The position numbers and the translations under genes were made by a program. A stretch of 64,000 bases of DNA from Gammaproteobacteria bacterium (GTDB lineage: Bacteria; Pseudomonadota; Gammaproteobacteria; CBDBNL01; JAAOII01). The DNA is taken from positions 1,152,001 to 1,216,000 of the forward strand of contig OZ242372.1 in the NCBI GenBank assembly GCA_965209035.1, given 5' to 3'. Below are positions 6,158 to 50,766 of this stretch, one piece after another; positions within the stretch are counted from its first letter, which is position 1, and each line of letters begins with the position of its first letter. The notes beneath the pieces are model-generated. The model had not been told where the DNA came from and searched no databases. It worked only from the letters and a program-made list of their open reading frames with translations.

Positions 6158-6786
6158 AGAATTAGAATACTCTCAATTTTAGGATGTAACGGATTGGTAT
6201 GATTTTAGAGACCTTATGTTTGTTGTAACAACAAGTTGTTGGTAGTTATTAATGATAATAAATAATTTAAATTTATTATTGTTATTAGATTGTTTATTAT
6301 AGTTGTAACCGCCACTAACTTCTATTTTATCTTATGTTTGTAAGGAATTGGATTAAAACAACAGGGTTGTTAATCTGTTTGTTTTTTGTTTGTTCTTTTT
6401 ACATAAGCCTCGTTTCTTTTTTTTGAGTTCCTATTTTTTCACCGGCAGCTTTTTTTATGTCGGCAATCTACAAATTACAAACAAGAAAAAAATTAAAAAA
6501 CCTTAATTACTCTTTTTTTCCATTCTCTTGTTTGATTTTTTTCTTATAACTATATTTGTTGTTCGTGATAAAAAAAGAGGCGATTTAATGGCGAACAAAG
6601 TGACAAAACAAAGTGACAAAACGTTGAGCGGTAGTTTGTAGTTTGTTTCAAGTTGGTATTCCAAATGAGGATACGGAACAGGAACAAAAGAAGAGCGGAG
6701 TGTTTGAGAGATTTAATGATTGTCTTATTTTATAAGGCTTTTTGAAATATGAATGTAAAGTAAAAATGACAGAAGAAAAATAAAAG
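6158..6786. other. Candidate replication origin (oriC): AT-rich intergenic region upstream of dnaA
   Basis: About 630 bp of noncoding DNA with a very AT-rich core (~6245-6300), divergent flanking genes, and adjacency to dnaA-dnaN-recF-gyrB. A parS cluster lies ~7 kb away. No perfect TTATCCACA was found. Confidence 0.55.
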
Positions 6787-8262
6787 ATGCCGAATCTCTC
6801 TTGGGACGCAATTAGCGTTTGTTTGGCACAAAAAATACCGACTTCAGAATTTGAAAGGTGGCTTTCTCCTCTTAAAGTAGAATGTCAAGCGAAATGTCAA
6901 ACAGGGGCTGGCCGGGATGAGAAAGGAAATATTGGTAAAAGGAAAAAAGAGGCAGCCGCCTCTTTTTTTAATGTATCTATCAAAGCGGAGAATAAATATA
7001 AGATGGATTGGGTCAAGAAACATTACGGGGAATGTATTTCTGAAATTGTTACGGAACTTTGTCGTTCCGATTCTTTGGTTCCAAAGATTCACTATTGTCA
7101 TTCCGGTAAAAAAGTTAAACAGAACGAGGCTATAAATACGAATGCGAATGCGATTATGAGAGCGGAAGATCGTTTCCCCGGCAATTTTCAGGGCCGAGGA
7201 ATTAAGGTTTCCGGTACGGCGGCAAATTGGACCAGTTGTGTATCACCCTATCCGACTTTTCAAAACTTTATTGATGGAAAAATTAACCGAGTGGCAAAAC
7301 GGATTGCCGTCAGTATTACTTCGAATGAGACGCGTGTTGGCAGTTTTTTCTTTTTTTGCGGAGGGAGCGGATTGGGTAAAACCCATCTGTTGCAAGCGAC
7401 GGCAAAAGAATTTAAGAAAAATAAACGATCTGTTGTTTATGTTCGTTCCGAGATTTTTGTGCGTTCTATGTTTCATCATCTAACAACAAAAGAAATGGAG
7501 AAATTCAAAGATATCTATCGCCATGCGGATGTTTTGATTATTGATGATATTCATGTATTTAAGGGGAAACCCAAAGTGCAAGAGGAGTTCTTTCACACTT
7601 TGGATGCCCGTTTGTCCGAAGAGAAAATAGTGATCCTGTCGGCGGATGCTTCGCCACAAAAAATGGATTATTTTTCGGATTCCTTGCGCGGGCGGTTGGT
7701 GAGTGCTCCTGTGGCGAAACTGGACAAACCGGACCGAGATACATTTCGTGCCATTATTGCCAAAAAATGTGTGGAAAGTAAATTGTCCCTGGATGAGCAA
7801 TGTGTGAACTATATTGCAGGGCGAGCCACCGGAAGTGTGCGGGAAGCGGAGGGTGCTTTGAAATTGGTGAGTTTTTATATGAATGTTTACAAAAAGCCGG
7901 CGGATTTGCCGATGATGAAAAAGGTGTTTTCAAACCTGGGTTCTGTGCGGAAGCGGGCTGCCAGGCCGGAAGAAATTCGGCGAGCCGCGGAACGATATTA
8001 TGAGTTGTCGGATGGGGCTTTGAAAACGGCGGGAAGGGAGAAAACTTTTGTGGTGGCAAGACGAATGGCGATGCTTCTTTGTCGCGAGTTCACCGAGTGC
8101 AGCACTACCGAAATAGGAAAAATATTTAATAGACGACATACTGCGGTTTTGCATGCCGTTCGTTGCCTTGAAAGTGAAATAAAGAAGAATGATAGTGTAA
8201 AATATGCTTACGAAAAGATGAAAAGTGAAATTGAATCTTTGGTAAATACAAGTGATTATTAA
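6787..8262 (+). CDS. dnaA: Chromosomal replication initiator DnaA
   Basis: Domain I FERWLSPL, Walker A GGSGLGKTHLL, Walker B LIIDDIH, QEEFFHT, SVREAEGAL and domain IV EIGKIFNRRHTAVLHA. Confidence 0.96.
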   Translation: MPNLSWDAISVCLAQKIPTSEFERWLSPLKVECQAKCQTGAGRDEKGNIGKRKKEAAASFFNVSIKAENKYKMDWVKKHYGECISEIVTELCRSDSLVPKIHYCHSGKKVKQNEAINTNANAIMRAEDRFPGNFQGRGIKVSGTAANWTSCVSPYPTFQNFIDGKINRVAKRIAVSITSNETRVGSFFFFCGGSGLGKTHLLQATAKEFKKNKRSVVYVRSEIFVRSMFHHLTTKEMEKFKDIYRHADVLIIDDIHVFKGKPKVQEEFFHTLDARLSEEKIVILSADASPQKMDYFSDSLRGRLVSAPVAKLDKPDRDTFRAIIAKKCVESKLSLDEQCVNYIAGRATGSVREAEGALKLVSFYMNVYKKPADLPMMKKVFSNLGSVRKRAARPEEIRRAAERYYELSDGALKTAGREKTFVVARRMAMLLCREFTECSTTEIGKIFNRRHTAVLHAVRCLESEIKKNDSVKYAYEKMKSEIESLVNTSDY

Positions 8263-9457: not shown

Positions 9458-10567
9458 TTGTTTGGCATGCCGGTTCTGCACAATCTGGAACTAAAAAACT
9501 TTCGCAATTGGAACCAACTTAAATTCTCACCCGCTGCTGGCATTAATTTGTTGGTCGGGGATAACGGCAGCGGAAAAACGGCAATTTTGGAGTCTTTGTT
9601 GTTTGTGTGTCGCGGTAAATCTTTTCGGGCGCGCAGCAACACCGATTGTATTCGTTATGGTGAGACGGCCGCGACCATAGACTCTTCCTGGCAGTCCGGT
9701 CGGGCGGTCGGCGGTGGCGGTAAATTTTCGGCACAGGTCCTTCTTTCGGCTTCGGGTGAGCGGCGGTTGTCCTTGCAGGGAAAACCGCAGCGGCAGAGGG
9801 CGGCAATTTTATCCCAAATCCCGGTTGTTTTTGTGGCGCCGCATAATCTCAATTTAATCGGCTCTTCTCCCGCTTTTCGCCGAACATTTTTGAACGCACT
9901 TCTGTTGCATGTTCTGCCCGAGTATCGCGGGCTTTTGGCGGACTATACAAAATGCTTGGCAGAGCGTAATGCGCGTCTTTTGCACCAACCGAGGGACTAT
10001 GCGCAAATGGTGGCATGGGACACAACTCTTGCCGCGCTGGGCGAGAGATTGGAAACTGCCGGCAATAGTGTTGTCCGCACTTTGATCAGCCGGATTGCCG
10101 AGTTGACGGATGCTCGCGCCGTTCCCCAAATCCGAGTATCCTATGCGCGGGGATGGAATGCGGATCTTTCTCTGGCGGATGCATTGCGCCGGTCTTTTGC
10201 CAAAGATCTGCGTTACGGCTTTTCCACTGTCGGTTGCCACAGAGCGGACCTGTCGGTTTGGTGCGGCAAGGTGCCGGCAATCAGAAAACTTTCCCTGGGA
10301 CAGAGTTATATGCTGGGGTTGGATTTCTTTTTTGCCGCACGGGAACAGATGGAGAATTCTTTGGGGACGCCCGCTTTGTTGATGTTGGATGATGTTATGC
10401 AACGCTTGGACAACAAAAACGGAGCATTCATTCGCGATTTTTTGCTACAGCACCGCATTCAGGCGTTGGTTACGGTCAGCGAACATCCCGCCTATTGGAA
10501 GATGGGCGGGAATCATGATGCCGGCTGGCAACTGGCAGACGATCGATTAGCCCGGCAGACGCAATAA
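9458..10567 (+). CDS. recF: DNA replication/repair protein RecF
   Basis: Motifs NFRN, GDNGSGKT, GKSFR, GCHRADL and LMLDD; lies between dnaN and gyrB. Confidence 0.93.
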   Translation: MFGMPVLHNLELKNFRNWNQLKFSPAAGINLLVGDNGSGKTAILESLLFVCRGKSFRARSNTDCIRYGETAATIDSSWQSGRAVGGGGKFSAQVLLSASGERRLSLQGKPQRQRAAILSQIPVVFVAPHNLNLIGSSPAFRRTFLNALLLHVLPEYRGLLADYTKCLAERNARLLHQPRDYAQMVAWDTTLAALGERLETAGNSVVRTLISRIAELTDARAVPQIRVSYARGWNADLSLADALRRSFAKDLRYGFSTVGCHRADLSVWCGKVPAIRKLSLGQSYMLGLDFFFAAREQMENSLGTPALLMLDDVMQRLDNKNGAFIRDFLLQHRIQALVTVSEHPAYWKMGGNHDAGWQLADDRLARQTQ

Positions 10568-10976: not shown

Positions 10977-13588
<2,612 letters not shown>

Positions 13589-13714
13589 GCGGCTGCTTTA
13601 TTGTGGGGCTGGGCTTGTAAGGGTAAGGACTGTGCCGGGACGGAAGGAGTGCCGCACTCGTTTTTGACAGGACTTCTTTGGTAGGGCTTCTTTGGCAGGA
13701 CTGGGAGGTCTTTT

Positions 13715-16700
13715 GTGAAGTTTGTTAATGTTCCATATGGAACATTTTTTATTTAAGGGGGGGAGACGATCCGGGGTGGTGTGTGTGAAGTGATGGCGAT
13801 TGCGCCGCGGTGCGCTCTATCTATGTTCGGATGCGGGCGGATCATCCGTGGAAGGCGGATGAGAGAGATCTTTGGAACCGGCAGTTTTTGGCTCGTTCCT
13901 TCCGATGATATTTTTACTTTCTCGCCCGTCCGCCGAAATGTTCTCAATGTTCCCAAATGTTCCACGTGGAACACTAATGCCCGTGCAACATTAAAGAAAG
14001 AGAGTGGTTTGCGGAAGGTTGCTTTTATTGGAGTGATGTAAAAGTGAGTCGGCTTGGTGAAGTTTGTTAATGTTCCGCATGGAACATTGTGAACATTTTT
14101 TATTTAAGGGGGGGAGACGATCCGGGGTGGTGTGTGTGAAGTGATGGCGATTGCTCCGCGGTGTGCTCTATCTATGTTCGGATGCGGGCGGATCATCCGT
14201 GGAAGGCGGATGAGAGAGATCTTTGGAACCGGCAGTTTTTGGCTCGTTCCTTCCGATGATATTTTTACTTTCCCGCCCGTCCGCCGAAATGTTCTCAATG
14301 TTCCCAAATGTTCCACGTGGAACATCGAAATCTTGCGAAACATTAAAGAGAGTGGTTTGCGGAAGGTTGTTGTTATTGGAATGATGTAAAAGTGAGTCGG
14401 CTTGGTGAAGTTTGTTAATGTTCCATATGGAACATTGTGAACATTTTTTATTTAAGGGGGGAGACGATCCGGGGTGGTGTGTGAAGTGATGGTGATTGCG
14501 CCGCGGTGCGCTCTATCTATGTTCGGATGCGGGCGGATCATCCGTGGAAGGCGGATGAGAGAGATCTTTGGAACCGGCAGTTTTTGGCTCGTTCCTTCCG
14601 ATGATATTTTTACTTTCCCGCCCGTCCGCCGAAATGTTCTCAATGTTCCCAAATGTTCCACGTGGAACATCGAAATCTTGCGAAACATTAAAGAGAGTGG
14701 TTTGCGGAAGGTTGTTGTTATTGGAATGATGTAAAAGTGAGTCGGCTTGGTGAAGTTTGTTAATGTTCCGCATGGAACATTGTGAACATTTTTTATTTAA
14801 GGGGGGAGACGATCCGGGGTGGTGTGTGTGAAGTGATGGCGATTGCTCCGCGGTGCGCTCTATCTATGTTCGGATGCGGGCGGATCATCCGTGGAAGGCG
14901 GATGAGAGAGATCTTTGGAACCGGCAGTTTTTGGCTCGTTCCTTCCGATGATATTTTTACTTTCTCGCCCGTCCGCCGAAATGTTCTCAATGTTCCCTAA
15001 TGTTCCACGTGGAACATTAATTTCCGTGAAACATTAAAGAAAGAGAGTGGTTTGCGGAAGGTTACTTTTATTGGAGTGATGTAAAAGTGAGATGGCTTGG
15101 TGATGCTTGCCGCCCAATGTTCCACGTGGAACATCGAAATCTTGCGAAACATTAAAGAGAGTGATTTGCGGAAGGTTGCTGTTATTGGAATGATGTGAAA
15201 GTGAGTCGGCTTGGTGAAGTTTGTTAATGTTCCGCATGGAACATTGTGAACTTTTTTTATTTAAGGGGGGAGACGATCCGGGGTGGTGTGTGTGAAGTGA
15301 TGGCGATTGCTCCGCGGTGTGCTCTATCTATGTTCGGATGCGGGCGGATCATCCGTGGAAGGCGGATGAGAGAGATCTTTGGAACCGGCAATTTTTGGCT
15401 CGTTCCTTCCGATGATATTTTTACTTTCTCGCCCGTCCGCCGAAATGTTCTCAATGTTCCCAAATGTTCCACGTGGAACATTAATTTCCGTGAAACATTA
15501 AAGAAAGAGAGTGGTTTGCGGAAGGTTACTTTTATTGGAGTGATGTAAAAGTGAGATGGCTTGGTGATGCTTGCCGCCCAATGTTCCACGTGGAACATCG
15601 AAATCTTGCGAAACATTAAAGAGAGTGATTTGCGGAAGGTTGCTTTTATTGGAGTGATGTAAAAGTGAGTCGGCTTGGTGAAGTTTGTTAATGTTCCGCA
15701 TGGAACATTGTGAACATTTTTTATTTAAGGGGGGAGACGATCCGGGGTGGTGTGTGTGAAGTGATGGCGATTGCTCCGCGCTGCGGCTGTTCCGCGGTTC
15801 GTTCTATCCATGATCCATGTTCGGATGCGGGCGGATCATCCGTGGAAGGCGGATGAGAGAGATCTTTGGAACCGGCAGTTTTTGGCTCGTTCCTTCCGAT
15901 GATATTTTTACTTTCTCGCCCGTCCGCCGAAATGTTCTCAATGTTCCCAAATGTTCCACGTGGAACACTAATGCCCGTGCAACATTAAAGAAAGAGAGTG
16001 GTTTGCGGAAGGTTGCTTTTATTGGAGTGATGTAAAAGTGAGTCGGCTTGGTGAAGTTTGTTAATGTTCCGCATGGAACATTGTGAACATTTTTTATTTA
16101 AGGGGGGGAGACGATCCGGGGTGGTGTGTGTGAAGTGATGGCGATTGCTCCGCGGTGTGCTCTATCTATGTTCGGATGCGGGCGGATCATCCGTGGAAGG
16201 CGGATGAGAGAGATCTTTGGAACCGGCAGTTTTTGGCTCGTTCCTTCCGATGATATTTTTACTTTCCCGCCCGTCCGCCGAAATGTTCTCAATGTTCCTA
16301 ATGTTCCACGTGGAACATTAATTTCCGTGAAACATTAAAGAAAGAGAGTGGTTTGCGGAAGGTTGCTTTTATTGGAGTGATGTAAAAGTGAGTCGGCTTG
16401 GTGAAGTTTGTTAATGTTCCGCATGGAACATTGTGAACATTTTTTATTTAAGGGGGGAGACGATCCGGGGTGGTGTGTGTGAAGTGATGGCGACTGCTCC
16501 GCGGTGCGCTCTATCTATGTTCGGATGCGGGCGGATCATCCGTGGAAGGCGGATGAGAGAGATCTTTGGAATCGGCAGTTTTTGGCTCGTTCCTTCCGAT
16601 GATATTTTTACTTTCCCGCCCGTCCGCCGAAATGTTCTCAATGTTCCTAATGTTCCACGTGAAACATTAAAGAAAGAGAGTGGTTTGCGGAAGGTTGCTT

Positions 16701-16887
16701 TTATTGGAGTGATGTAAAAGTGAGATGGCTCGGTGATGCTTGCCGCCCAATGTTCCACGTGGAACATCTGAACATCGGAACATTAAAGAGAGAGGTTTGT
16801 CGAAGATTACTCTTATTGGAGTGATGTAAAAGTGAGTCGGCTTGGCGAAGTTGGTTAATGTTCCGCATGGAACATTGTGAACATTTT
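13715..16887. repeat. Satellite array of 8 units (~345-465 bp), each carrying parS palindromes
   Basis: The unit anchor TTTTATTTAAGGGGGG recurs at ~13747, 14098, 14446, 14792, 15256, 15719, 16092 and 16441. Units are near-identical. Confidence 0.97.
13958..16766. promoter_or_regulatory. Cluster of 11 parS (ParB-binding) sites
   Basis: Perfect palindrome TGTTCCACGTGGAACA at 13958, 14309, 14654, 15001, 15118, 15465, 15582, 15952, 16302 and 16751, plus TGTTCCACGTGAAACA at 16651. These match the chromosomal parS consensus TGTTNCACGTGAAACA and lie near the origin. Confidence 0.9.
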
Positions 16888-17064
16888 CTTTTTTGTATGA
16901 GATTTTGCCGAAATCGCATCAAAGAGAAAGAACATGCACCGAGAACGGTGAATATTGATGTGTTGCCGTATTCGTATTAATGCGCGGAGCAATTATCCGG
17001 GTGATTGTTTTTTGTTTCTTTCTTCTTTCTTTTTCCCCGTATTTTTAGAAAGGAACGCGGAAGG

Positions 17065-18594
17065 TTAACCGGCTGTTATTTTGTTCAGGTAGGTCTCGGT
17101 ATCCAAAAGAAGAGAATAGGCGGGGTCCTCTTTCGGCGTATCGGCGAGAAGTGTTTTTAGACTCGCACGAATTTCCGGCAGATCTCTTGCCCACACTTTT
17201 TGGCAATGGTTGTTCCATTCCGCTTTCTCGTTCTTTGTGAGGAGGTGCGGGAAATTGCGACCCTTGTAATGTGCGACCAATGCCGGCAATCGTTCGTCCT
17301 CAAAAGAGTCGGGGTCGGTTGCGATATTGCTAATTTTTTCTTCGGTGTCCTCGATGTTTGGGATATTTGCGATGCCCGCGCTATTTGCGATGCCTGCGCC
17401 GGATATTGCCGCAAGCAGTGCGGCATCCCGGTCGGTGATAAACTGTTGATATAACAGTTCTTCGGCGGAACAATAAGTGCCTTCCGCCGGAAACTCCCGT
17501 TCTTTGCCAAAGATTTGGCGAACCTTTGCGCGTAGGGCCTCCCGATGTTTGCCGGCTAATTGCAGATGGTTGCGTGTCTGTTCGCGATCCAGCGACAGGC
17601 GGGCGAAGATATCGTTCATCTTGTCTTGGGTCCAGGTTTTGTCAAACGGGAAGAGTACCGGGCAGTGATTGACTCGCAGGCCCTTAATTCCCTGTAACGG
17701 CGAGATGCCGCTTTCTTCGGCGACCGAGTGCTTGACGAACATTCGTTCGCGGGCCTCTTCGGCGGAGAGTTCCAAAAAGGGCAGCGGCGAGTGTCGCAGA
17801 TCAAAACAATGAAACAGGTTAGCTTGTCGCGGATCCCGAACAAGTGGCAAAACAATACTGCCGCCGTGATGCTCGCCGCGAAAACGCGAGGAAAAGTGCA
17901 AGAGCGGAGCGGAGTCTCGCGCCTGCAGTAACGAAATACTTTCTATTTTGCCGCGATGTCGCAAGCAAAAATCAAACAATTCGGGAGCATTATGGCGGAC
18001 GATCTTTGCCAGACACAGGAGGGCCCCGGTATCTTCCAACGCGTCGTGAGCGATGATCTCAATCCCGTTTGCCTGTGCCAGGTCTTCCAACTTGTATGAG
18101 GGAGTGCCGTCTTCTTTGTGCGCCGGGCGAAGTGTGTCCGGCGCGAGGACGGAAACAAGACGCAACACATTCAAAAGGTCCCACTTGCCGCAGTTGTTTT
18201 TGAATTCGTGCTCGTAAGGAGGGAGCAGGTTGCGATAAAAAAGGTAGCGCAGGTGTTTGTTGTCAAACTCTTCCGAGTTGTAGCCCACGGAGCAGGTGCC
18301 GGGGAGACACACTTCCCGATGAATACGCGCGGCGAACTCACTTTCGCGCAGAGCTCCGTTGCGTTTTGCGCCCTCGCCGATGAGTTGCAACGGGCTGATT
18401 CTATGCACCCCGGCGCTTTCGGGGTCCGGCAGGCGATCCATCGGCAGTTGGCAAAGAAGGTTGATCGGCTCTCCCAAAGTATGAAAATTCGCGTCCGTTC
18501 GCACCGCGCCGAATTGAATGATCGGGCGCCGCAACTCGCTGAGTCCGAAGGTTTCCAGATCATACCAAAGAAAAGTTTGCGGGTCGGGGCTCAT
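17065..18594 (-). CDS. sbcB: Exodeoxyribonuclease I
   Basis: DEDDh motifs WYDLETFG, GYNSEEFD and AHDALED, plus SYKLEDL and YKGRNFP. Confidence 0.93.
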   Translation of the reverse strand: MSPDPQTFLWYDLETFGLSELRRPIIQFGAVRTDANFHTLGEPINLLCQLPMDRLPDPESAGVHRISPLQLIGEGAKRNGALRESEFAARIHREVCLPGTCSVGYNSEEFDNKHLRYLFYRNLLPPYEHEFKNNCGKWDLLNVLRLVSVLAPDTLRPAHKEDGTPSYKLEDLAQANGIEIIAHDALEDTGALLCLAKIVRHNAPELFDFCLRHRGKIESISLLQARDSAPLLHFSSRFRGEHHGGSIVLPLVRDPRQANLFHCFDLRHSPLPFLELSAEEARERMFVKHSVAEESGISPLQGIKGLRVNHCPVLFPFDKTWTQDKMNDIFARLSLDREQTRNHLQLAGKHREALRAKVRQIFGKEREFPAEGTYCSAEELLYQQFITDRDAALLAAISGAGIANSAGIANIPNIEDTEEKISNIATDPDSFEDERLPALVAHYKGRNFPHLLTKNEKAEWNNHCQKVWARDLPEIRASLKTLLADTPKEDPAYSLLLDTETYLNKITAG

Positions 18595-24728: not shown

Positions 24729-26026
24729 TGCATAGTCTCATAAAGGTTCTGGACTCTGAGTTTGGTATTGTGCGTCCTCAGATCAAGCAGCCGGAGGTTC
24801 TGTCGGACGGGTCGAAAATAGATCCGGCAACGGGTCTTCGGTATGTGGAGCTAGATGAATGAAACGGGCAAGAAGGACGGATAGCTGTTTTGCTCTCACC
24901 GCCGCAGACAGCGGAGGCTTGTTGTTGATAAAACTGTCTAGGTGTATCCGCTGGCGAGACGGTACGGTTTGTGAGGGCAGCCGGACTGCACATTGGAAAT
25001 GAGAGGAACACGTTTACGCTACATTGGTTATCGCGTGCGCGGTTTCAATAAAATGGTGGTTTTAGCAAACAAATATTCAAACATGTCTAAAACCACCAAA
25101 ATCAAACTGGACACCTTAGCGTTCGCGCGCAAACATGGTGTCGCGGCGGCGCTGGATCATGCCGGGATCAGTCGTGCTACATTCTACGAGTGGCAGCGGC
25201 GTTTCCGTGAAGGCGGGGTCGATGAACTGGCGAACAACTATGGGTATCAGCCCAAGCGGTCCAACACCTGGCCACCGGCACTGATTGACAAGATCCGGTC
25301 TTGGCGACAAGAGCGACCGAATATCGGTCCCAATAAACTGGTCTGCTTGTTACCCGAATGGTGCCAGCAGCGCGGGCTGCCGATGCCCAGCCAATCAACG
25401 CTCTCTCGCATCATTGCCGATGACCCGGATAAGATGCGGTGCAAACCATCGCGGTCCGTGCCGAAACGCCCGCGGCAAGGTGCTCCGCGCGAGCGCAAGG
25501 ACATCCGCTTTGTTGCGGGCCGGAGAGGTGAATGTGTTGCCTTTGATACGCTCGTCCGCATCGTCGATGGCCGGCGCTTTTATTGGCATGTCGGCATTGA
25601 TCTATTTTCCCGCTTCTCACTGGTCAGTGTCGACACCTCGGCTGCTTCGGCCAGTTCCGCCCGGCTCTTTACCGCCATGCAAAACATACTCGGCACTCGG
25701 ATCGAAAAAGCCCTCACCGATAATGGCAGTGAGTTCGCCAAAGACTTTCACCGGGTCGTGACCGCAAACGGCAGCACCCACTGGTATACCTATCCAAGGA
25801 AACCGCAAATGAATGCACACTGCGAACGGTTTAATCGCACTCTCTGGGAAGAGTTCGGTTGTCATATGCGGCATCTCTTGGTTAAGGATATGCCAGCATT
25901 CAACGCCAAACTCATCGAGTGGTTGGCTTGGTATAATCTGGAACGTCCCCATTATGCTCTCAAACAACTCTCGCCAATCCAGTTTTTGCAAAAACAACAA
26001 AAGTCCAGAAATGGGTGGGATCATAC
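24729..26026 (+). mobile_element. IS481-family element, copy 1
   Basis: Left end TGCATAGTCTCATAAAGGTTCTGGACT and right end AGTCCAGAAATGGGTGGGATCATAC form imperfect ~27-bp inverted repeats around a DDE transposase. Confidence 0.9.
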
Positions 26027-26033
26027 TGCATGA
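24999..26033 (+). CDS. IS481-family DDE transposase
   Basis: N-terminal HTH (ISRATFYEW) and integrase core VAFDT / TDNGSEF / PQMNAHCERFNRT / YNLERPH in a single ORF. Confidence 0.93.
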   Translation: MRGTRLRYIGYRVRGFNKMVVLANKYSNMSKTTKIKLDTLAFARKHGVAAALDHAGISRATFYEWQRRFREGGVDELANNYGYQPKRSNTWPPALIDKIRSWRQERPNIGPNKLVCLLPEWCQQRGLPMPSQSTLSRIIADDPDKMRCKPSRSVPKRPRQGAPRERKDIRFVAGRRGECVAFDTLVRIVDGRRFYWHVGIDLFSRFSLVSVDTSAASASSARLFTAMQNILGTRIEKALTDNGSEFAKDFHRVVTANGSTHWYTYPRKPQMNAHCERFNRTLWEEFGCHMRHLLVKDMPAFNAKLIEWLAWYNLERPHYALKQLSPIQFLQKQQKSRNGWDHTA

Positions 26034-27330
26034 TCTCATAAAGGTTCTGGACTCTGAGTTTGGTATTGTGCGTCCTCAGATCAAGCAGCCGGATGTTCTG
26101 TCGGACGGGTCGAAAATAGATCCGGCAACGGGTCTCCGGTATGTGGAGCTAGATGAATGAAACGGGCAAGAAAGATGGATAGCTGTTTTGCTCTCACCGC
26201 CGCAGACAGCGGAGGCTTGTTGTTGATAAAACTGTCTAGGTGTATCCGCTGGCAAGACGGTACGGTGTGCGAGAGCGGCTGCACCGCGGAGGTGATTTGA
26301 AATGAGAGGAACACGTTTACACTACATTGGTTATCGCGTGCGCGGTTTCAATAAAATGGTGGTTTTAGCAAACAAATATTCAAACATGTCTAAAACCACC
26401 AAAATCAAACTGGACACCTTAGCGTTCGCGCGCAAACATGGTGTCGCGGCCGCGTTGGATCATGCCAGGATCAGTCGTGCTACATTCTACGAGTGGCAGC
26501 GGCGTTTCCGTGAAGGCGGGGCCGATGAACTGGCGAACAACTATGGGTATCAGCCCAAGCGGTCCAACACCTGGCCACCGGCACTGATTACCAAGATCCG
26601 ATCTTGGCGACAAGAGCGTCCGAACATCGGTGCCGGTAAACTGGTCTGCTTGTTACCCGAATGGTGTCAGCAGCGCGGGCTGCCGATGCCCAGCCAATCA
26701 ACGCTCTCTCGCATCATTGCCGATGACCCGGATAAGATGCGGTGCAAACCATCGCGGCCCGTGCCGAAACGCCCGCGGCAAGGTGCTCCGCGCGAGCGCA
26801 AGGACATCCGCTTTGTTGCGGGCCGGAGAGGTGAATGTGTTGCCTTTGATACGCTCGTCCGCATCGTCGATGGCCGGCGCTTTTATTGGCATGTCGGCAT
26901 TGATCTATTTTCCCGCTTCTCACTGGTCAGTGTCGACACCTCGGCTGCTTCGGCCAGTTCCGCCCGGCTCTTTACCGCCATGCAAAACATACTCGGCACT
27001 CGGATCGAAAAAGTCCTCACCGATAATGGCAGTGAGTTCGCCAAAGGCTTTCACCGGGTCGTGACCGCAAACGGCAGCACCCACTGGTATACCTATCCAA
27101 GGAAACCGCAAATGAATGCACACTGCGAACGGTTTAATCGCACTCTCTGGGAAGAGTTCGGTTGTCATATGCGGCATCTCTTGGTTAAGGATATGCCAGC
27201 ATTCAACGCCAAACTCATCGAGTGGTTGGCTTGGTATAATCTGGAACGTCCCCATTATGCTCTCAAACAACTCTCGCCAATCCAGTTTTTGCAAAAACAA
27301 CAAAAGTCCAGAAATGGGTGGGATCATACA
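26027..27330 (+). mobile_element. IS481-family element, copy 2 (directly abutting copy 1)
   Basis: Ends TGCATGATCTCAT and GGGATCATACA; near-identical to copy 1. Confidence 0.93.
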
Positions 27331-27543
27331 AAGTGCCTATCATCCCCGCCGTTGCCGTTAAGATCATCGCGCATGCGCCCCAAATCATCCAGCGTCCGCA
27401 CCTCTATCAACCCGTCGCCGTCATCGTCCACATCCGCCGCATCGGTCACGCCATCGCCGTCATCATCCGGGACCGCCACCGCCGCCGGAACCGCCGCCGC
27501 CACCACAAGCGGTGAGCAGAACGGCCGACAAGACGACTGTTAA
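26302..27543 (+). CDS. IS481-family transposase, reading through the right end into flanking DNA
   Basis: Same protein as copy 1 up to NGWDHT. The tail is antisense of a lipoprotein gene fragment. Confidence 0.88.
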   Translation: MRGTRLHYIGYRVRGFNKMVVLANKYSNMSKTTKIKLDTLAFARKHGVAAALDHARISRATFYEWQRRFREGGADELANNYGYQPKRSNTWPPALITKIRSWRQERPNIGAGKLVCLLPEWCQQRGLPMPSQSTLSRIIADDPDKMRCKPSRPVPKRPRQGAPRERKDIRFVAGRRGECVAFDTLVRIVDGRRFYWHVGIDLFSRFSLVSVDTSAASASSARLFTAMQNILGTRIEKVLTDNGSEFAKGFHRVVTANGSTHWYTYPRKPQMNAHCERFNRTLWEEFGCHMRHLLVKDMPAFNAKLIEWLAWYNLERPHYALKQLSPIQFLQKQQKSRNGWDHTKCLSSPPLPLRSSRMRPKSSSVRTSINPSPSSSTSAASVTPSPSSSGTATAAGTAAATTSGEQNGRQDDC

Positions 27544-27630
27544 TAATAAAAGAATGCCGCGGCGGATAGTTCGGCCGGCTGCGGCCATGCCGTTGCTATT
27601 GAAAGCATTGATTGCAAATAGACTCATCAT
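27331..27630 (-). pseudogene. 5' fragment of an IS-disrupted TSP3/GLUG lipoprotein gene
   Basis: Reads MSLFAINAFNSNGMAAAGRTIRRGILLLLTVVLSAVLLTACGGG, then after a frame change PDDDGDGVTDAADVDDDGDGLIEVRTLDDLGRMRDDLNGNGGDDRH. It is paralogous to 33516-34457. Confidence 0.9.
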
Positions 27631-27732
27631 GAATTGTTTTTGTTAAAGCACACAGATAAAATCAAAATCATAGTTACTATTTTACCATATTTCGGCAAGA
27701 CGGTACATCTGTGTGTTGTGTATAGTCCCATC

Positions 27733-28150
27733 CCCGCCCGATTGCGGGGTTTAGGGGGTTTAACTTGTAGAAAATGAGAAGCCTGGTGACTGGCAACACA
27801 ACCGGCGGGCTCGCCTTGCCGGATCACCCTCGCCCGATTGCATGGTTTAACTTGTCAAAAGATCAGTGCTTATTAAAGATACTGATAAGAAACACAGCCG
27901 GCGGACTTGCCTTGCCGGATCACCCCCGCCCGATTGCGGGGTTTAGATTGTAGAAAATTAGAAGCCCAGTGACTGGCAACACAGCCGGCGGACTTGCCTT
28001 ACCGGATCACCTCCGCCCAATTGCGGGGTTTAAGTTGTAGAAAATGAGAAGCCTGGTGACCGGCAACACAACCGGCGGACTTGCCTTGCCGGATCACCCC
28101 CGCCCGATTGCGGGGTTTAGGTTGTAAAAAGATCAGTGCTTGTTAAAGAT
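27733..28150. repeat. Tandem repeat, ~4.5 units of ~87-96 bp
   Basis: CCCGCCCGATTGCGGGGTTTA...ACACARCCGGCGGACTTGCCTTGCCGGATCAC recurs at ~27733, 27829, 27924, 28011 and 28098. Confidence 0.92.
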
Positions 28151-28324
28151 GCATTCTTTGCCGCGGACTCATCACCGTTTCGCAGCTGCTGCGTCGCTGT
28201 TTCGTCACTGTCTCATCGCTGTTTCATAGACGCTGCATCGATGAAGCGATCTGTTTGGCTCGCCGAAGGCAGCCAAACGAGATCTCGGTCTGCTTCTTGC
28301 TTCCGCTTACCCGCTGCTGACTTC

Positions 28325-30523
28325 CTACTGCCGTTGCTGTTGCTCTTCTACGCTGACAGGAAGACAGTTCAGAACGGGATATTGGTTGGCATCGCCCAGA
28401 TCCCAGAGACGCTCGAAGGAGCCGCCGGGGTCCGTCCTGTTTTCCCGGATCTCGAAACTGGTCGGATCACACCAGAAGTTGCCCCAAGCGGCATAGATGC
28501 CTGTGAAATCGGTCGGGTTTTGCAACTGTGCAGTCCCCAGAGCGGTGCCTAGGGTGTCCCCAGTTCGGGGATCACTTGCCGGTTGTCTGGTCGTCTCATT
28601 ATCCCAATAGGAAGCAATGACAGTTGGGGACTGGCCAAAGCCTAACAAGCCACTAATTCGAGGCTTAGTATTAAATGCAGAAACAGGACCGCCGGCCGTA
28701 TAAGAATAACTAATTTCCGGAATCTGTCCTGCACCAAACAAACCACCGACACTATCTAGACCGAAAACACTGCCACCGACTGCATAAGCATGACGAATAC
28801 TCATATCCGTTACAAAGCCACTTATGCCACCGATTTGATTACTATCACCAGTAACAGTAACGTCGGATACGGACACAATACGTATATCAGAGTCAGGTAC
28901 ACTGCCGGCCAGACCACCAATAGTAGAAAAAGCACTAATAGTAACATCGGACACGGACACAGCACGCATCTCAGCATTCTCTCCTTCACCGACCAGACCA
29001 CCGACAGTACGCGCGGACGGACTCATGATCACTCCCCCGGCGATGGCAAGATTTGTAAACTGACCATCCTGGCCATAGCCAACCAGCAGCCCCAGATCAC
29101 TGGCACCGCCACTGACATTCGCATCCAACAGATGCATATTTTGGATAGTGCCATTTAAGGCACCAAACAAGCCGGTTCCGTTAACATCATCATTCACAGA
29201 AATAAACAGATCCGCAATCGCATAACCCCCGCCGTCAAACACGGAAGTATAAGGGGTGCAAACATTGTTGGCAGTACAAGAGCCAATCGGCACCCAGCCG
29301 CTGCCGGCACGATTCGTCCAGGCATCCACATTAACGCTGCTCCCGTTATAGGAAGCCTCATCACTAAAACTGAGCGAGCGGGCCAGTTCATAACCTTTAC
29401 ATCCGGAACTCGGACAGCCATCAGAACCTACAGGAGTAATCTCGGGAATAGCACCATCATCCATCCCATCGCCATCCAGATCATCGCGCAGCCGCGCCAA
29501 GTCATCCAAAGTGTAAATTTCTATGAGGCTATTATTATTGTCATCCACATCCGTCAGATCCGGAACATTATCATTGTCATCGTCCATATCTTCCGTCAAG
29601 GTAGTGTTCACGCCGGTAACACAGCCGGTGACCAAAGTATCCGGGTCACCGTCCTTATCTGCGTCGGCACTGGCACAGGCATCGGTCCGGAAGGCATCCA
29701 TGTTATCCGGAACATCGTCATTGTCATCGTCCTCATCACAGGCATCGCCGCCATCGTCCGCCTTGTCCGTGTTGGCTTGATCCGCATTGGCAACCGACCG
29801 GCAGTTATCTGCCGTCAAGTCGGTATCACAGTCGGTAACCAGACTGTCCGGCCGACCGTCCCCATCCGTATCGGTGCCGGCACAGGCATCCGCCCGGAAT
29901 GCATCCGTCGCATCCAAAACTCCGTCTCTGTCAATGTCTCCCTCAGTGTTGATTCCCGCAGACCCGGTCCTTGCCGTGCCGGGCGGCGAAACAGATGCCG
30001 AACGGCCATCCTCATAGATCACCACAATCGTTAGATTGTAGTTGGCATTATTCAGCAGATCTTTAATAGTATGGATCACGCGCACATCGGCCGAGACATT
30101 AACATCCGCCGCCGTCAGCTTCTCTGTGCCGTTATTGCTCGGAACTTGCGTATTCTCCCAAATAATATTAAAGCCGGAAATATCTTGTTGATTCGGATTC
30201 TTCCAAGCGACAATAAGACTCGTATCCGTATTCCCCGCCACAAACTCAACCGCGGAAACGGGCGCGGGACCGCCGCCAGCACCGGAACCGCCGCCGCCGC
30301 CTTCGCAGGCAGCCAACAGCATCGCCGGCACAATAAGATATAGAATTTTAGATCGGATGCCGACACCTTTAAAAGGAAAAGGAAAAGCAAAAGAAGGCAG
30401 ATAAGAAACAGGCGCGCATCTCACGGATTGCATTGCAATGCTTTCATTGCAGCCTTTCAACGCACCCAACACACCCGCACGGGTGCGGCGATTTATAGAA
30501 CAAATTTTCATGATTTTTTTCAA
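28325..30523 (-). CDS. Surface lipoprotein: FN3-like domain + TSP type-3-like Asp-rich repeats + GLUG repeats
   Basis: Lipobox LLAAC plus Gly linker; LIVAWKNPN FN3-like domain; DxDxDG repeats; LIEIYTLDDL; repeated GGLVG; C-terminal WDLGxxxQYPxL. The start codon is uncertain. Confidence 0.88.
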   Translation of the reverse strand: MKKIMKICSINRRTRAGVLGALKGCNESIAMQSVRCAPVSYLPSFAFPFPFKGVGIRSKILYLIVPAMLLAACEGGGGGSGAGGGPAPVSAVEFVAGNTDTSLIVAWKNPNQQDISGFNIIWENTQVPSNNGTEKLTAADVNVSADVRVIHTIKDLLNNANYNLTIVVIYEDGRSASVSPPGTARTGSAGINTEGDIDRDGVLDATDAFRADACAGTDTDGDGRPDSLVTDCDTDLTADNCRSVANADQANTDKADDGGDACDEDDDNDDVPDNMDAFRTDACASADADKDGDPDTLVTGCVTGVNTTLTEDMDDDNDNVPDLTDVDDNNNSLIEIYTLDDLARLRDDLDGDGMDDGAIPEITPVGSDGCPSSGCKGYELARSLSFSDEASYNGSSVNVDAWTNRAGSGWVPIGSCTANNVCTPYTSVFDGGGYAIADLFISVNDDVNGTGLFGALNGTIQNMHLLDANVSGGASDLGLLVGYGQDGQFTNLAIAGGVIMSPSARTVGGLVGEGENAEMRAVSVSDVTISAFSTIGGLAGSVPDSDIRIVSVSDVTVTGDSNQIGGISGFVTDMSIRHAYAVGGSVFGLDSVGGLFGAGQIPEISYSYTAGGPVSAFNTKPRISGLLGFGQSPTVIASYWDNETTRQPASDPRTGDTLGTALGTAQLQNPTDFTGIYAAWGNFWCDPTSFEIRENRTDPGGSFERLWDLGDANQYPVLNCLPVSVEEQQQRQ

Positions 30524-30555
30524 ATTAAAAATTAAAGTATATGTAATGCATTATA

Positions 30556-31605
30556 TCAAATTTGATAACCAAATATTGTATGATCCCACCCATTTCTGGA
30601 CTTTTGTTGTTTTTGCAAAAACTGGATTGGCGAGAGTTGTTTGAGAGCATAATGGGGACGTTCCAGATTATACCAAGCCAACCACTCGATGAGTTTGGCG
30701 TTGAATGCTGGCATATCCTTAACCAAGAGATGCCGCATATGACAACCGAACTCTTCCCAGAGAGTGCGATTAAACCGTTCGCAGTGTGCATTCATTTGCG
30801 GTTTCCTTGGATAGGTATACCAGTGGGTGCTGCCGTTTGCGGTCACGACCCGGTGAAAGTCTTTGGCGAACTCACTGCCATTATCGGTGAGGACTTTTTC
30901 GATCCGAGTGCCGAGTATGTTTTGCATGGCGGTAAAGAGCCGGGCGGAACTGGCCGAAGCAGCCGAGGTGTCGACACTGACCAGTGAGAAGCGGGAAAAT
31001 AGGTCAATGCCGACATGCCAATAAAAGCGCCGGCCATCGACGATGCGGACGAGCGTATCAAAGGCAACACATTCACCTCTCCGGCCCGCAACAAAGCGGG
31101 TGTCCTTGCGCTCGCGCGGAGCACCATGCCGCGGGCGTTTCGGCACGGACCGCGATGGTTTGCACCGCATCTTATCCGGGTCATCGGCAATGATGCGAGA
31201 GAGCGTTGATTGGCTGGGCAGCGGCAGCCCGCGCTGCTGACACCATTCGGGTAACAAGCAGACCAGTTTACCGGCACCGATGTTCGGACGCTGTTGTCGC
31301 CAAGATCGGATCTTGGTAATCAGTGCCGGTGGCCAGGTGTTGGACCGCTTGGGCTGATACCCATAGTTGTTCGCCAGTTCATCGACCCCGCCTTCACGGA
31401 AACGCCGCTGCCACTCGTAGAATGTAGCACGACTGATCCTGGTATGATCCAACGCGGCCGCGACACCATGTTTGCGCGCGAACGCTAAGGTGTCCAGTTT
31501 TATTTTGGTGGTTTTAGACATGTTTAAATATTGATTTGCTAAAACCACCATTTTATTGAAACCGCGCACGCGATAACCAATGTAGCGTAAACGTGTTCCT
31601 CTCAT
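30556..31605 (-). CDS. IS481-family transposase
   Basis: Near-identical to copies 1 and 2. The stop codon lies outside the element. Confidence 0.92.
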   Translation of the reverse strand: MRGTRLRYIGYRVRGFNKMVVLANQYLNMSKTTKIKLDTLAFARKHGVAAALDHTRISRATFYEWQRRFREGGVDELANNYGYQPKRSNTWPPALITKIRSWRQQRPNIGAGKLVCLLPEWCQQRGLPLPSQSTLSRIIADDPDKMRCKPSRSVPKRPRHGAPRERKDTRFVAGRRGECVAFDTLVRIVDGRRFYWHVGIDLFSRFSLVSVDTSAASASSARLFTAMQNILGTRIEKVLTDNGSEFAKDFHRVVTANGSTHWYTYPRKPQMNAHCERFNRTLWEEFGCHMRHLLVKDMPAFNAKLIEWLAWYNLERPHYALKQLSPIQFLQKQQKSRNGWDHTIFGYQI

Positions 31606-31875
31606 TTCCAATGTGCAGTCCGGCTGCCCTCACAAACCATACCGTCTCGCCAGCGGATACACCTAGACAGTTTTATCAACAACAAGCCTCCGCTGTCTGC
31701 GTCGGTGAGAGCAAAACAGCTATCCGTCCTTCTTGCCCGTTTCATTCATCTAGCTCCACATACCGTAGACCTGTTGCCGGATCTATTTTCGACCCGTCCG
31801 ACAGAACATCCGGCTGCTTGATCTGAGGACGCACAATACCAAACTCAGAGTCCAGAACCTTTATGAGATCATGCA
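30577..31875 (-). mobile_element. IS481-family element, copy 3 (inverted relative to copies 1 and 2)
   Basis: Right end TGTATGATCCCACCC at 30577 and left end ATGAGATCATGCA ending at 31875. Confidence 0.94.
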
Positions 31876-46560: not shown

Positions 46561-48393
46561 TTACCGGTCTTGTGCCGAAAGGCCGCCCGGCAGGCAATTC
46601 AGGGCCGGGTATTGGCTGCTCGTGCCGAGATCCCAGACGCGGATGAAGGAGGCACCTGGCCCGTCATCGGTGGCATCTTCCATTTCCTCGCCGGTGTCCG
46701 GATCACACCAGAAGCTGCCCCAGTCGGCATAGATTCCCGTGAACCCGGTCGGCGATTGCAAGGCTGTCGTGCTATGACCCTCGCCCAAATTACCGGCACT
46801 CATAGACTGCATGGTGGTTTGATTATCCCAATAGGTGGCAATGACACCGGTGTCACTATTGTTGCTGCCGATCAATCCGCCGACATCACTGAGACCTGAA
46901 ACAAGCCCGGGGGCGGCATAAGAATAATTAATTTGAGCTCCTGCCCCATCCCCAACCAGGCCGCCAATACGCGATCCGGTTCCCTTAACACTTCCGCCGG
47001 ACACAGCAGCATAGCGAATATCCGCAGTCCTACCGTCCCCAACCAGGCCGCCAACAGCATTACTCCCGGCAACATTCACACCGGACACGGGCGCATAGCG
47101 AATATCCGCATCCTGACCAAGCCCAACCAGGCCGCCAACATTGCTCCTCCCGGAAATATTCACACCGAACACGGACGCATAGCGAATATCCGCATTAAAC
47201 CCCTGCCCAACCAGGCCGCCAACATTATTAATCCCGGAAATATTCACACCGGACACGGACGCATAGCGAATATCCGCATCCTCGCCAAACCCAACCAGAC
47301 CGCCAGCAAAAGAATCCGCCCCGGAAACAACTCCGCCGGATACGACGGCATAGCGGATTGCAGTATTCTGACCATTCCCAACCAGGCCGCCAACAGAATT
47401 ACTCCCGGCAACACTCACACCGGACACGGACGCATTGCGAATATTCGCATTCCTACCATCCCCAACCAGGCCGCCAACAGCAGTGGCACCGCCACTGACA
47501 TTTGCATTCCGGAGATGCAGATTTTGGATATCGCCGGTTAAGGCACCAAACAACCCCACTCCATGGGCAGTATTGCTCGCAGAGATGAACAGATCTGCAA
47601 TACGATAACCCCCGCCGTCAAAGATTCCGGTATAAGACGTGCAAACAATCGCTGATGAACAAGAGCCGATCGGCTGCCAACCTCTGCCGGTCGTCCAGAC
47701 ATCCATCTTACTGCGGTTCGCATAGGATTCCGGGTCGCTAAAATTCAACGAGCGGCTCAATTCGTAGCCATTACAGCCGGAACTCGGGCAACCGACAGAG
47801 CCCATAGCGGTAATATTGGGAAACATCCCATCATCCGTTCCATTGCCATTGAGATTATCGCGCAGCCGTGCCAAGTCATCCAAAGTGCTGATTTCTATGA
47901 GGCTGTTATTATTGTCGTCCACATCTGTCTCATCCAAGATCTCGTCATTGTCATCGTCCGGGTCCTCCCTCAGGGTTGTTTGACATCCGGTAACCAAACT
48001 ATCCGGCAGCTCATCGCCATCCGTGTCCACACTCGCACAGGCATCTGTCCGGAACGCATCGTCCGTATCCGCCACGCCATCATTGTCATCGTCCAAATCC
48101 TCGCCCGCATCGCGACAGCCGTCACGGTCATTGTCCGTAGATGCATTGGAAGTCCAGCCAGTATCGCCGCCGCTCGGACAGGCATCCGCAGTATCCGCAA
48201 TTCCGTCTCCATCCAAGTCTGTGTTCGTTCCCCCGCCGGAACCGCCGCCACCGGAACCGCCACAGGCGGCGAGTAGGACAACCGATAGAGTGATTGTCAA
48301 TAATAGAATGATGCCGCTGCGTGCCGTTTGCCCGGCCGCGGCAATACATGCAATGCAGTTGCTACTGATCGTTTGTTCTTTAAATATTTTCAT
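46561..48393 (-). CDS. TSP3/GLUG-repeat lipoprotein, array member A (8 GGLxG repeats)
   Basis: Start MKIFKEQ by alignment with paralogs; lipobox LLAAC; DxDxDG repeats; ~28-aa ADIRYASVSG...GGLVG repeats. Confidence 0.92.
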   Translation of the reverse strand: MKIFKEQTISSNCIACIAAAGQTARSGIILLLTITLSVVLLAACGGSGGGGSGGGTNTDLDGDGIADTADACPSGGDTGWTSNASTDNDRDGCRDAGEDLDDDNDGVADTDDAFRTDACASVDTDGDELPDSLVTGCQTTLREDPDDDNDEILDETDVDDNNNSLIEISTLDDLARLRDNLNGNGTDDGMFPNITAMGSVGCPSSGCNGYELSRSLNFSDPESYANRSKMDVWTTGRGWQPIGSCSSAIVCTSYTGIFDGGGYRIADLFISASNTAHGVGLFGALTGDIQNLHLRNANVSGGATAVGGLVGDGRNANIRNASVSGVSVAGSNSVGGLVGNGQNTAIRYAVVSGGVVSGADSFAGGLVGFGEDADIRYASVSGVNISGINNVGGLVGQGFNADIRYASVFGVNISGRSNVGGLVGLGQDADIRYAPVSGVNVAGSNAVGGLVGDGRTADIRYAAVSGGSVKGTGSRIGGLVGDGAGAQINYSYAAPGLVSGLSDVGGLIGSNNSDTGVIATYWDNQTTMQSMSAGNLGEGHSTTALQSPTGFTGIYADWGSFWCDPDTGEEMEDATDDGPGASFIRVWDLGTSSQYPALNCLPGGLSAQDR

Positions 48394-48747
48394 AGTAATT
48401 TGTTTGTAATGAATTAATAATAACAGTTCCTTGCATAAGGAATAGTAATAATATACCATATTTCGCCGGATCTTCCTTTAAATTGTATGATCCCACCCAT
48501 TTCCGGACTTTTGTTGTTTTTGTAAAAACCGGATCGGTGAGAGTTGTTGAGGGAAAAACGCGTATCAGCCGGCATAAAAGACCCGGGTGCCTGCCAATAG
48601 ATTTCGAATAATAATAGATGAGAGGCAGAAGCTAAGAAGTTGGAAGTTGGGCGGGCAGTCGTCTTATTTGTCGTACTCTGCCCTGCCTCGTCCTGTCCCG
48701 CCCCGATCTGCCGGTCCGTTCCGGGGCTTCCCTCTTGCCGGCCTCTC

Positions 48748-50409
48748 TTACCGGTCTTGTGCCGAAAGGCCGCCCGGCAGGCAATTCAGGGCCGGGTATT
48801 GGCTGTCCGTGCCGAGATCCCAGACGCGGATGAAACCGGGCGGTTGGGAAGAACTTGTCATTTCCTCGCCGGTGTTCGGGTTGCACCAGAAGTTACCCCA
48901 GACCTCATAGATGCTCCCGGCAAACTCGGTCGGCGATTGTAAGGCTGTCGTGCTATGACCCTCGCCCAAATCACCGGCACTCATAGACTGCATGGTGGTT
49001 TGATTGTCCCAATAGGTGGCAATAACATCGGTGTCACTATCGGTGAAGCCGATCAATCCACCGACATCACTACCGCCGGAAACAAGCCCAGGGGCGGCAT
49101 AAGAATAATTAATTTGAGATCCTGTCCCCGTCCCAACTAGGCCGCCAACACGCGATCCGGTTCCCTTAACACTTCCACCGGACACGGACGCATAGCGAAT
49201 ATCCGCATTAATCCCTTGCCCAGCCAGGCCGCCAACATTACTACTCCCGGAAACATTCACACCGGACACGGACGCATAGCGAATATCCGCATTCCTACCA
49301 AACCCAACCAGGCCGCCAGCAAAAGAATCCGCCCCGGAAACAACTCCGCCGGATACGACGGCATAGCGAATATCCGCATCCTCGCCATTCCCAACCAGGC
49401 CGCCAACAGAAAAACCCCCGGCAACACTCACACCGGACACGGACGCATTGCGAATATCCGCATTCCTACCATACCCAACCAGGCCGCCAATAGCAGTGGC
49501 ACTGCCATTGACATTTGCATTCCGGAGATGCAGATTTTGGATATCGCCGGTTAAGGCACCAAATAACCCCACTCCATTGGCAGTATTGCTCGCAGAGATA
49601 AACAGATCTGCAATACGATAACCCCCGCCGTCAAAGATTCCGGTATAAGACGTGCAATCAATCGCTGATGAACAAGAGCCGATCGGCTGCCAACCTCTGC
49701 CGGTCGTCCAGACAGACCGGTTGCCACTGCCCGCGGCATAGGAATCCGCATCGCTAAAATTCAACGAGCGAGTTAATTCGTAGCCATTACAGCCGGAACT
49801 CGGGCAACCCACAGAACCCATAGCGGTAATCTCGGGAAACATCCCATCATCCGTTCCATTGCCATTGAGATTATCGCGCAGCCGTGCCAAGTCATCCAAA
49901 GTGCTGATTTCTATGAGGCTGTTATTATTGTCGTCCACATCTGTCTCATCCAAGATCTCGTCATTGTCATCGTCCGGGTCCTCCCTCAGGGTTGTTTGAC
50001 ATCCGGTAACCAAACTATCCGGCAGCTCATCGCCATCCGTGTCCACACTCGCACAGGCATCTGTCCGGAACGCATCGTCCGTATCCGCCACGCCATCATT
50101 GTCATCGTCCAAATCCTCGCCCGCATCGCGACAGCCGTCACGGTCATTGTCCGTAGATGCATTGGAAGTCCAGCCAGTATCGCCGCCGCTCGGACAAGCA
50201 TCCGCAGTATCCGCAATGCCGTCTCCATCCAAGTCTGTGTTCGTTCCCCCGCCGGAACCGCCGCCGGAACCACCGCCACAGGCGGCGAGTAGGACAACCG
50301 ACAGAGCGATTGTCAATAATAGAATGATGCCGCTGCGTGCCGTTTGCCCGGCCGCGGCAATACATGCAATGCAGTTGCTACTGATCGTTTGTATATCAAA
50401 TATGTTCAT
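48748..50409 (-). CDS. TSP3/GLUG-repeat lipoprotein, array member B (6 repeats)
   Basis: Near-identical N-terminal half to A, with fewer GLUG units. Confidence 0.92.
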   Translation of the reverse strand: MNIFDIQTISSNCIACIAAAGQTARSGIILLLTIALSVVLLAACGGGSGGGSGGGTNTDLDGDGIADTADACPSGGDTGWTSNASTDNDRDGCRDAGEDLDDDNDGVADTDDAFRTDACASVDTDGDELPDSLVTGCQTTLREDPDDDNDEILDETDVDDNNNSLIEISTLDDLARLRDNLNGNGTDDGMFPEITAMGSVGCPSSGCNGYELTRSLNFSDADSYAAGSGNRSVWTTGRGWQPIGSCSSAIDCTSYTGIFDGGGYRIADLFISASNTANGVGLFGALTGDIQNLHLRNANVNGSATAIGGLVGYGRNADIRNASVSGVSVAGGFSVGGLVGNGEDADIRYAVVSGGVVSGADSFAGGLVGFGRNADIRYASVSGVNVSGSSNVGGLAGQGINADIRYASVSGGSVKGTGSRVGGLVGTGTGSQINYSYAAPGLVSGGSDVGGLIGFTDSDTDVIATYWDNQTTMQSMSAGDLGEGHSTTALQSPTEFAGSIYEVWGNFWCNPNTGEEMTSSSQPPGFIRVWDLGTDSQYPALNCLPGGLSAQDR

Positions 50410-50766
50410 AATTTATTTTTGTAATTGTGAATTAATAATAAAGTTCCCTAAATAAGGAATAGTAATAATATACCATATTTCGCCGGATCTTCCTTTAAAT
50501 TGTATGATCCCACCCATTTCCGGACTTTTGTTGTTTTTGTAAAAACCGGATCGGTGAGAATTGTTGAGGGAAAAACGGGGATCAGCCAGCATAAAGGACC
50601 CGGGTGCTTGCCAATAGATTTCGAATAACAGAGATGAGAGGCAGAAGCTAAGAAGTGGGAATTTGGGCGGGCAGTCGTCTTATTTGTCGTGCTCTGCCCT
50701 GCCTCGTCCCGATCTGCCGGTCCGTTCCGGGGCTTCCCTCTTGCCGGCCTCTCTTACCGGCCCCTC

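Follow-up and report, generated by a model that had tools for sequence, protein, structure and literature searches.

The gap between the convergent genes gyrB and sbcB of this gammaproteobacterial chromosome was occupied by a tandem array with 11 consensus parS sites; judging from its sequence, the array most likely functions as the centromere. The window is the whole stretch of DNA that was analysed (64,000 nucleotides), and positions refer to it unless contig C1 is named. The gene order was dnaA-dnaN-recF-gyrB and then the array, which lay 7.2 kb from the start of dnaA and 13 kb from the cumulative GC-skew minimum at window position 991 (C1:1152991). The origin-proximal location proposed in the preliminary description was thus borne out. 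The features of the locus are listed below.

6787..8262, + strand: dnaA, Pfam Bac_DnaA; marks the origin region
9458..10567, + strand: recF; both intragenic parS sites typical of the class are lost
10995..13523, + strand: gyrB, identified by Pfam; left flank, reads towards the array
13714..16893, no strand: whole parS tandem array, non-coding; 11 consensus and 9 variant sites
13714..14055: unit 1, 342 bp; variant site 13729 (ATAT centre, then a T run, terminator-like); consensus parS 13958
14056..14403: unit 2, 348 bp; variant 14071; parS 14309; 18-bp arms 14081-14098 and 14287-14304, 94% complementary
14404..14748: unit 3, 345 bp; variant 14419 (ATAT centre); parS 14654
14749..15212: unit 4, 464 bp; variant 14764; parS 15001; extra 117-bp sub-unit with parS 15118
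15213..15676: unit 5, 464 bp; variant 15228; parS 15465 and, in an added sub-unit, parS 15582; higher-order repeat of unit 4
15677..16049: unit 6, 373 bp with a 23-bp insertion; variant 15692; parS 15952
16050..16399: unit 7, 350 bp; variant 16065; parS 16302
16400..16843: unit 8, 444 bp; variant 16415; parS 16651, which reads TGTTCCACGTGAAACA; diverged sub-unit with parS 16751
16844..16893: partial ninth unit, 50 bp; variant site 16859
17065..18594, - strand: sbcB (exonuclease I), Pfam Exonuc_X-T_C and RNase_T; right flank, reads towards the array

Architecture of the parS array

The palindrome TGTTCCACGTGGAACA occurred ten times in the array (13958, 14309, 14654, 15001, 15118, 15465, 15582, 15952, 16302 and 16751) and TGTTCCACGTGAAACA once, at 16651, where it was re-created in unit 8 by a deletion between half-site repeats. 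All 11 sites matched exactly the 16-bp palindrome tGTTNCACGTGNAACa given as the parS consensus in PMC3597684, which agrees with the earlier identification of this 16-mer as chromosomal parS. They spanned 2.81 kb (13958 to 16766), so the previously reported ten perfect palindromes and one further site in about 2.8 kb were recovered. The chance expectation was 0.13 matches, and the observed count was reached in 0 of 100 shuffles. When the 2.24-Mb assembly was scanned with up to two mismatches, every consensus parS was inside the array, and elsewhere there was one two-mismatch site per contig. Nine additional palindrome-like sites with two mismatches each, seven TGTTCCGCATGGAACA and two TGTTCCATATGGAACA, were present in the array, one at each unit start; the preliminary description, otherwise correct, did not include them.

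The region was split into units at a recurring anchor. This gave eight complete units, 342-464 bp long, followed by 50 bp of a ninth, in keeping with the eight near-identical units of ~345-465 bp described before, and the array started 191 bp from the gyrB stop (13523), where ~200 bp had been estimated. Each unit consisted of a variant palindrome, ~230 bp, a consensus parS and a ~100-bp tail, and units 4, 5 and 8 had an added sub-unit of 100-117 bp with a second consensus parS. The units were long and 95% identical, and 17 of the 20 parS-type sites were within TRF-detectable repeats. Several indels fell between short parS half-site repeats. Recovery of head-to-tail mosaic units upheld the proposal that the parS-bearing locus itself was tandemly amplified.

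In unit 1 (13727-13746), an 8-bp deletion set the variant palindrome directly before the T run, giving a terminator-like hairpin ~200 bp past gyrB. The spacings between neighbouring sites (100-117 and 229-260 bp) corresponded to 9.5-11.1 and 21.8-24.8 turns at 10.5 bp, an inconsistent helical phase. No Rfam family matched the array at E values up to 1, promoter-like sites were absent where 4.0 would be expected, and the array had no DnaA box with one mismatch or less. A triple-site pattern had no match in the window.

Two other identities of the array were rejected. Three ORFs of 100-119 aa overlapped it, but its copies differed by indels of 1, 2, 4, 8 and 23 bp, which does not fit a coding repeat. 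A CRISPR array was discarded because the spacers between the palindromes are themselves repeated.

Assembly check and copy number

The assembly consisted of 2 contigs, and the array was tested against three public sequencing runs, all from one sample that is perhaps the source of the assembly itself. Another run (X4) was set aside as being without the organism, with 1 of 49 reads at 99% identity or more. The contigs of all three runs, aligned to gyrB plus unit 1, contained both the head-to-tail joint and the joint of the 117-bp sub-unit. Contig depth over the unit core was 105, 205 and 182, compared to 14.9, ~47 and ~34 over gyrB. The resulting ratios were 7.1, ~4.4 and ~5.4, where eight assembled units predict 5.5, and the implied unit numbers were 10.2, 6.3 and 7.8, to be read with the caution that contig depth is not a copy number. 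If the depth of run contigs is capped at 255, as we assume, run X2 implies 7.5 units. The depth data are best read as a multi-copy array of about the assembled size rather than as the variation within the population that had been considered.

The units differed pairwise by 5-22 changes per shared alignment. Among 66 informative column pairs, 24 were incompatible, with all four combinations present. This points to exchange between copies and is unlike the product of duplication by an assembler. A true number of only one or two units had been raised as a possible artefact of assembly; the units differ, both joints occur in every run and the depth fits about 6-10 units. That the assembler inflated one or two real units is therefore extremely improbable, even though the runs share one sample, possibly the assembly source, and the array was spanned by no run contig.

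Origin region

No clear cluster of DnaA boxes was found by which oriC could be placed. The AT-rich gap before dnaA (6160-6787) had no DnaA box with one mismatch or less to the consensus that we assumed, and DnaA was only ~30% identical within the family. A second tandem array was located at 400-947, upstream of hemB and at the GC-skew minimum, with about 6.6 copies of 80-87 bp. It contained seven half-parS heptamers, the second-densest half-site cluster of the chromosome, confined to that place. This could be a decayed centromere or a chance occurrence, as a half-site was found in 5 of 164 TRF rows of period 60-130. Elsewhere in the window, 24993-31611 and 46561-58199 held three integrase-core ORFs and five tandem proteins with GLUG motifs.

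ParABS and SMC partners

As noted previously, no parAB was present in the window; a scan of 35 window proteins gave none. The recommended genome scan did reveal an intact parA-parB pair, and smc and scpB scored over their cut-offs. The pair consisted of adjacent ORFs at about 618-620 kb of C1, 540 kb from dnaA; in four relatives checked, the distance from parB to dnaA was 430-780 kb. ParB was over the TIGR00180 cut-off, and ParA matched ParA-family models below their cut-offs. The genome also encoded recA and mutS.

The ParB of this pair was the only ParB_N protein in the genome, and its best relatives of solved structure were ParB proteins. It contained the CTP motif GERRWRA and the CBM2 motif GHAKVIL, which is of the GHAK type according to PMC3597684. 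The specificity residues, mapped by motif spacing, were R-L-N-G at 173/179/184/201 (Caulobacter numbering), and R173 and G201 are described as defining the parS preference of ParB (PMC7383237). No Noc paralogue was detected, as the single ParB_N protein scored 198 bits against the Noc cut-off of 315. An array that alternates parS with Noc sites was also rejected: the second palindrome has parS arms, and a Noc paralogue is absent.

The parAB locus (L001) was itself bracketed by tandem repeats. A 209-bp repeat in 2.6 copies followed parB (C1 617857-618403), and the rsmG-parA gap held short repeats before parA that extend the parA ORF.

Loss of recF sites and parS in relatives

A parS encoded within recF was found in the loci of 18 of 19 relatives from the class, usually encoding FHVE or FHVK, in the middle of the gene and at the C terminus. 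In these loci (L003-L022) it mostly occurred twice per gene, about 615-635 bp apart, and constitutes a widely conserved dual-coding centromere. The present genome (G000) was compared with G001 of the same family and with G002 and G003, where G001 and G002/G003 represent two sister genera. The recF gene of G000 encoded LLHVLP where G001 has LFHVEQ, and the C-terminal FHVE/FHME motif was absent.

G001 kept the mid-gene site, and its C-terminal position held TGTTCCATATGGAACA (QVFHMEHL). The 3' end of its recF had been copied twice into a repetitive recF-gyrB spacer, which gave three variant copies; only one consensus site was present. G002 and G003 had no recF sites; their four or five variant sites lay in the nhaA-hemB interval, mainly within a repeated upstream block, and gyrB and sbcB of G003 were about 40 bp apart with no parS between. 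Full parS-like sites lay just upstream of hemB in G002 and G003. In the same nhaA-hemB interval, tandem ORFs of 330-380 aa without a Pfam match (L043 13407-15588, L044 2994-8517) were interleaved with the parS-variant block.

The flanks of the array were compared with the parS flanks of G001-G003 and G005, and the best rank was 16 of 412 sites, which does not support homology. As no homology to the array was detectable in the flanks of the family sites, parS appears to have been multiplied separately in two sister genera, in unrelated flanks. A search for close relatives in metagenomes through RecF gave 81 pattern matches, none of them confirmed.

Consensus parS was present in 266 of 400 other genomes of the class, 15 of which had three or more by hand count. 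The maximum was 5 compared to 11 here, in a tally that includes many fragmented assemblies where arrays collapse and also G044 with 0 sites. What sets this genome apart is the 11 sites, the loss of the recF-coded parS, the separate multiplication in sister genera, and substitutions at three parS-contacting positions of the family ParB.

Comparison with known parS clusters

Most species have one to four parS according to a survey cited in PMC3899335. The same paper describes 22 parS in 3 kb in Myxococcus xanthus, where ParB binds the cluster in vitro. The array resembles that cluster in its length of about 3 kb, its about 20 parS-type sites, its origin-proximal position and its consensus type. 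The M. xanthus cluster is about 4 kb from parA, whereas parAB here is 540 kb from the array. Two myxococcal loci (L052 and L089) had 4 of 15 and 0 of 10 sites in TRF-detectable repeats, far from the 17 of 20 here.

In Pseudomonas aeruginosa, parS1 and parS2 are inside recF, and the four strong sites parS1-4 are in unique sequence (PMC5521831, PMC5961200). ParS3 and parS4 repress adjacent promoters (PMC5521831), and ParB binds GTTCCAT half-sites (PMC5961200). The palindrome and the dnaA-dnaN-recF-gyrB neighbourhood are the same as here, and the GTTCCAT arm is also found in our variant sites; unlike in P. aeruginosa, the recF sites are gone and a tandem array is present instead. In the sopC locus of the F plasmid, a 43-bp repeat stands 12 times in tandem, and every copy contains a 16-bp inverted repeat (PMC3597684). 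This locus is likewise a centromere made as a head-to-tail array of ParB-binding palindromes, binding being predicted in our case, but it is on a plasmid, with a short unit and a different palindrome, beside sopAB.

To follow the suggestion of looking for parS inside tandem repeats elsewhere, GTDB was scanned for two parS about 100-130 bp apart, a design biased to short units. At least 121 stretches were found and 80 examined. Nine of the 80 had at least eight parS-like sites, and six had at least four in a tandem repeat, with a maximum of 7 versus 17 here. Among the matches listed, other chromosomal tandem arrays were L113 (99 bp x 6.3), L077 (126 bp x 5.6) and L074 (62 bp x 6.7). These also carry consensus parS in tandem repeats, but their units are shorter. 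The L113 array runs off the end of a Bacteroidetes contig, and L074 and L077, from Bacilli, alternate parS with a second palindrome, which we take to be of the Noc type. Unlike these two, the second palindrome of our array is a parS variant, and a ParB paralogue is absent.

Eukaryotic satellite centromeres extend over megabases, and their identity is set by chromatin. The likeness drawn in the preliminary description is an analogy only: head-to-tail units, higher-order structure and mosaic homogenisation at a segregation locus are shared, but the array here is 3 kb long and its identity comes from a 16-bp sequence. The preliminary interpretation was overstated in that dense or tandem parS centromeres have precedents in M. 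xanthus, F sopC and the six GTDB loci. In the literature searched, mainly the main texts of open-access papers, we found no description of a chromosomal parS array whose units are long and nearly identical, nor of a relocation of parS out of recF. Tandem or dense parS clusters are already known, and the array is not a new kind of centromere.

Tandem repeats in the genome

TRF repeats covered 7.0% of C1, coding repeats and CRISPR included. By a rough ORF model, 42 of 168 TRF arrays with a period of 60 or more were for the most part clear of long ORFs, and a tandem array was present in 49 of 566 spacers of at least 200 bp (about 9%). Eighteen other non-coding arrays had units of 150-600 bp in 1.9-5.0 copies, values taken by hand. 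The parS array was the longest non-CRISPR non-coding array of the genome, with eight units against at most 5.0 at a similar unit size. Because the genome duplicates many spacers in tandem, a centromere-specific process is unnecessary, and the form of the array is best explained by a general tandem-duplication process. Loss of MutS was rejected as the cause of the repeats, as MutS_V was intact in all five genomes. Outside the window, CRISPR arrays with a period of about 62 bp were seen at C1:1956421-1960050 and 1961373-1963216, the first of which was read; the repeat end presumably resembles a Cas12a-type repeat.

Discussion

We consider it probable that the array is a working ParABS centromere whose units were multiplied by the tandem duplication seen across the genome and then tolerated, with a site number that is probably not tuned. 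It is the sole consensus cluster, it is origin-proximal, and the genome has an intact single ParB with parA, smc and scpB. By analogy with known ParABS systems, CTP-bound ParB would form clamps at the 11 consensus sites, with probably weaker loading at the nine variants. It would then spread and engage ParA, which would move the origin region, and SMC-ScpAB would be loaded beside oriC. Comparison with relatives shows that the lineage lost both recF parS sites; it would have retained a parS module in the intergenic gap between gyrB and sbcB. This module may have multiplied by slippage or unequal exchange, with half-site repeats as microhomology, and the copies, which are observed to be mosaic, would have been scrambled and homogenised by recombination. 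Two circumstances presumably made the extra copies tolerable. The gap contains no promoter that could be silenced, and segregation usually needs no more than one site, a single parS being often sufficient (PMC7333895, PMC7022226).

The array is nevertheless the largest of its kind in a genome where only about 9% of spacers carry one, which speaks against a mere by-product. Together with the sister-genus multiplication and the three ParB residue changes, its size fits selection for more sites. The family ParB may have drifted to bind parS more weakly or loosely, so that amplification was selected as compensation; the size of the partition complex and the loading of SMC would then depend on how long the array is. 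We regard this as doubtful. The family ParB deviates at K171M, S172P and R204K (Caulobacter numbering): M171 and K204 were found in all four family ParBs and P172 in three, while among 30 class ParBs position 171 was K or R in 29, position 172 was S in 28 and position 204 was R in 26, and the next family had the usual K, S and R. Those 30, however, were the best scorers to the family model among 44 genomes with a match and are biased to consensus, and K at 204 is described as a known working state (PMC3597684). Three genera multiplied parS-like sites differently (the array in G000, three variant copies in G001, four or five sites in G002/G003), and the ATAT-centred variant was shared by G000 and G001, with 0 occurrences among 300 other genomes of the phylum; on the other side, G001 has a similar ParB and only one consensus site, and related genomes are not independent. 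The 16-mer had no substitution over its 11 copies, against 25 of 88 variable tail columns (P about 0.005, columns assumed independent). At the unit-wide rate of 28 variable columns in 318, 16 invariant columns are unremarkable and not significant, and 11 of the variable tail columns form one block beside the site, so this conservation is weak evidence. A broader version, in which parS left recF for different intergenic places by genus, variants evolved with the altered ParB, amplification offsets weaker binding and array length is selected and variable, seems unlikely. It is very unlikely that the unit is a small MITE-like mobile element, or a repeat merely resembling parS, with segregation achieved by other means. 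Inverted 18-bp arms do flank a 188-bp core in each unit, the unit folds better than shuffles (z -3.4) and integrases are common in the window, but no match longer than 29 bp exists outside the array in the genome, the arms are parS half-site repeats, and the intact ParB has no other consensus parS.

PMC7333895 raises two questions: the reason for the wide range of parS numbers, given that one site is often sufficient, and the cause of parS clustering. If only a by-product, the tolerated, working ParABS centromere that we favour would neatly illustrate how a known type of centromere can look in a genome prone to repeats. The locus represents one concrete route to many parS, in which the recF-coded sites were lost and tandem duplication followed. 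With its sister genera it provides a small natural series that links site number, site sequence and ParB residues.
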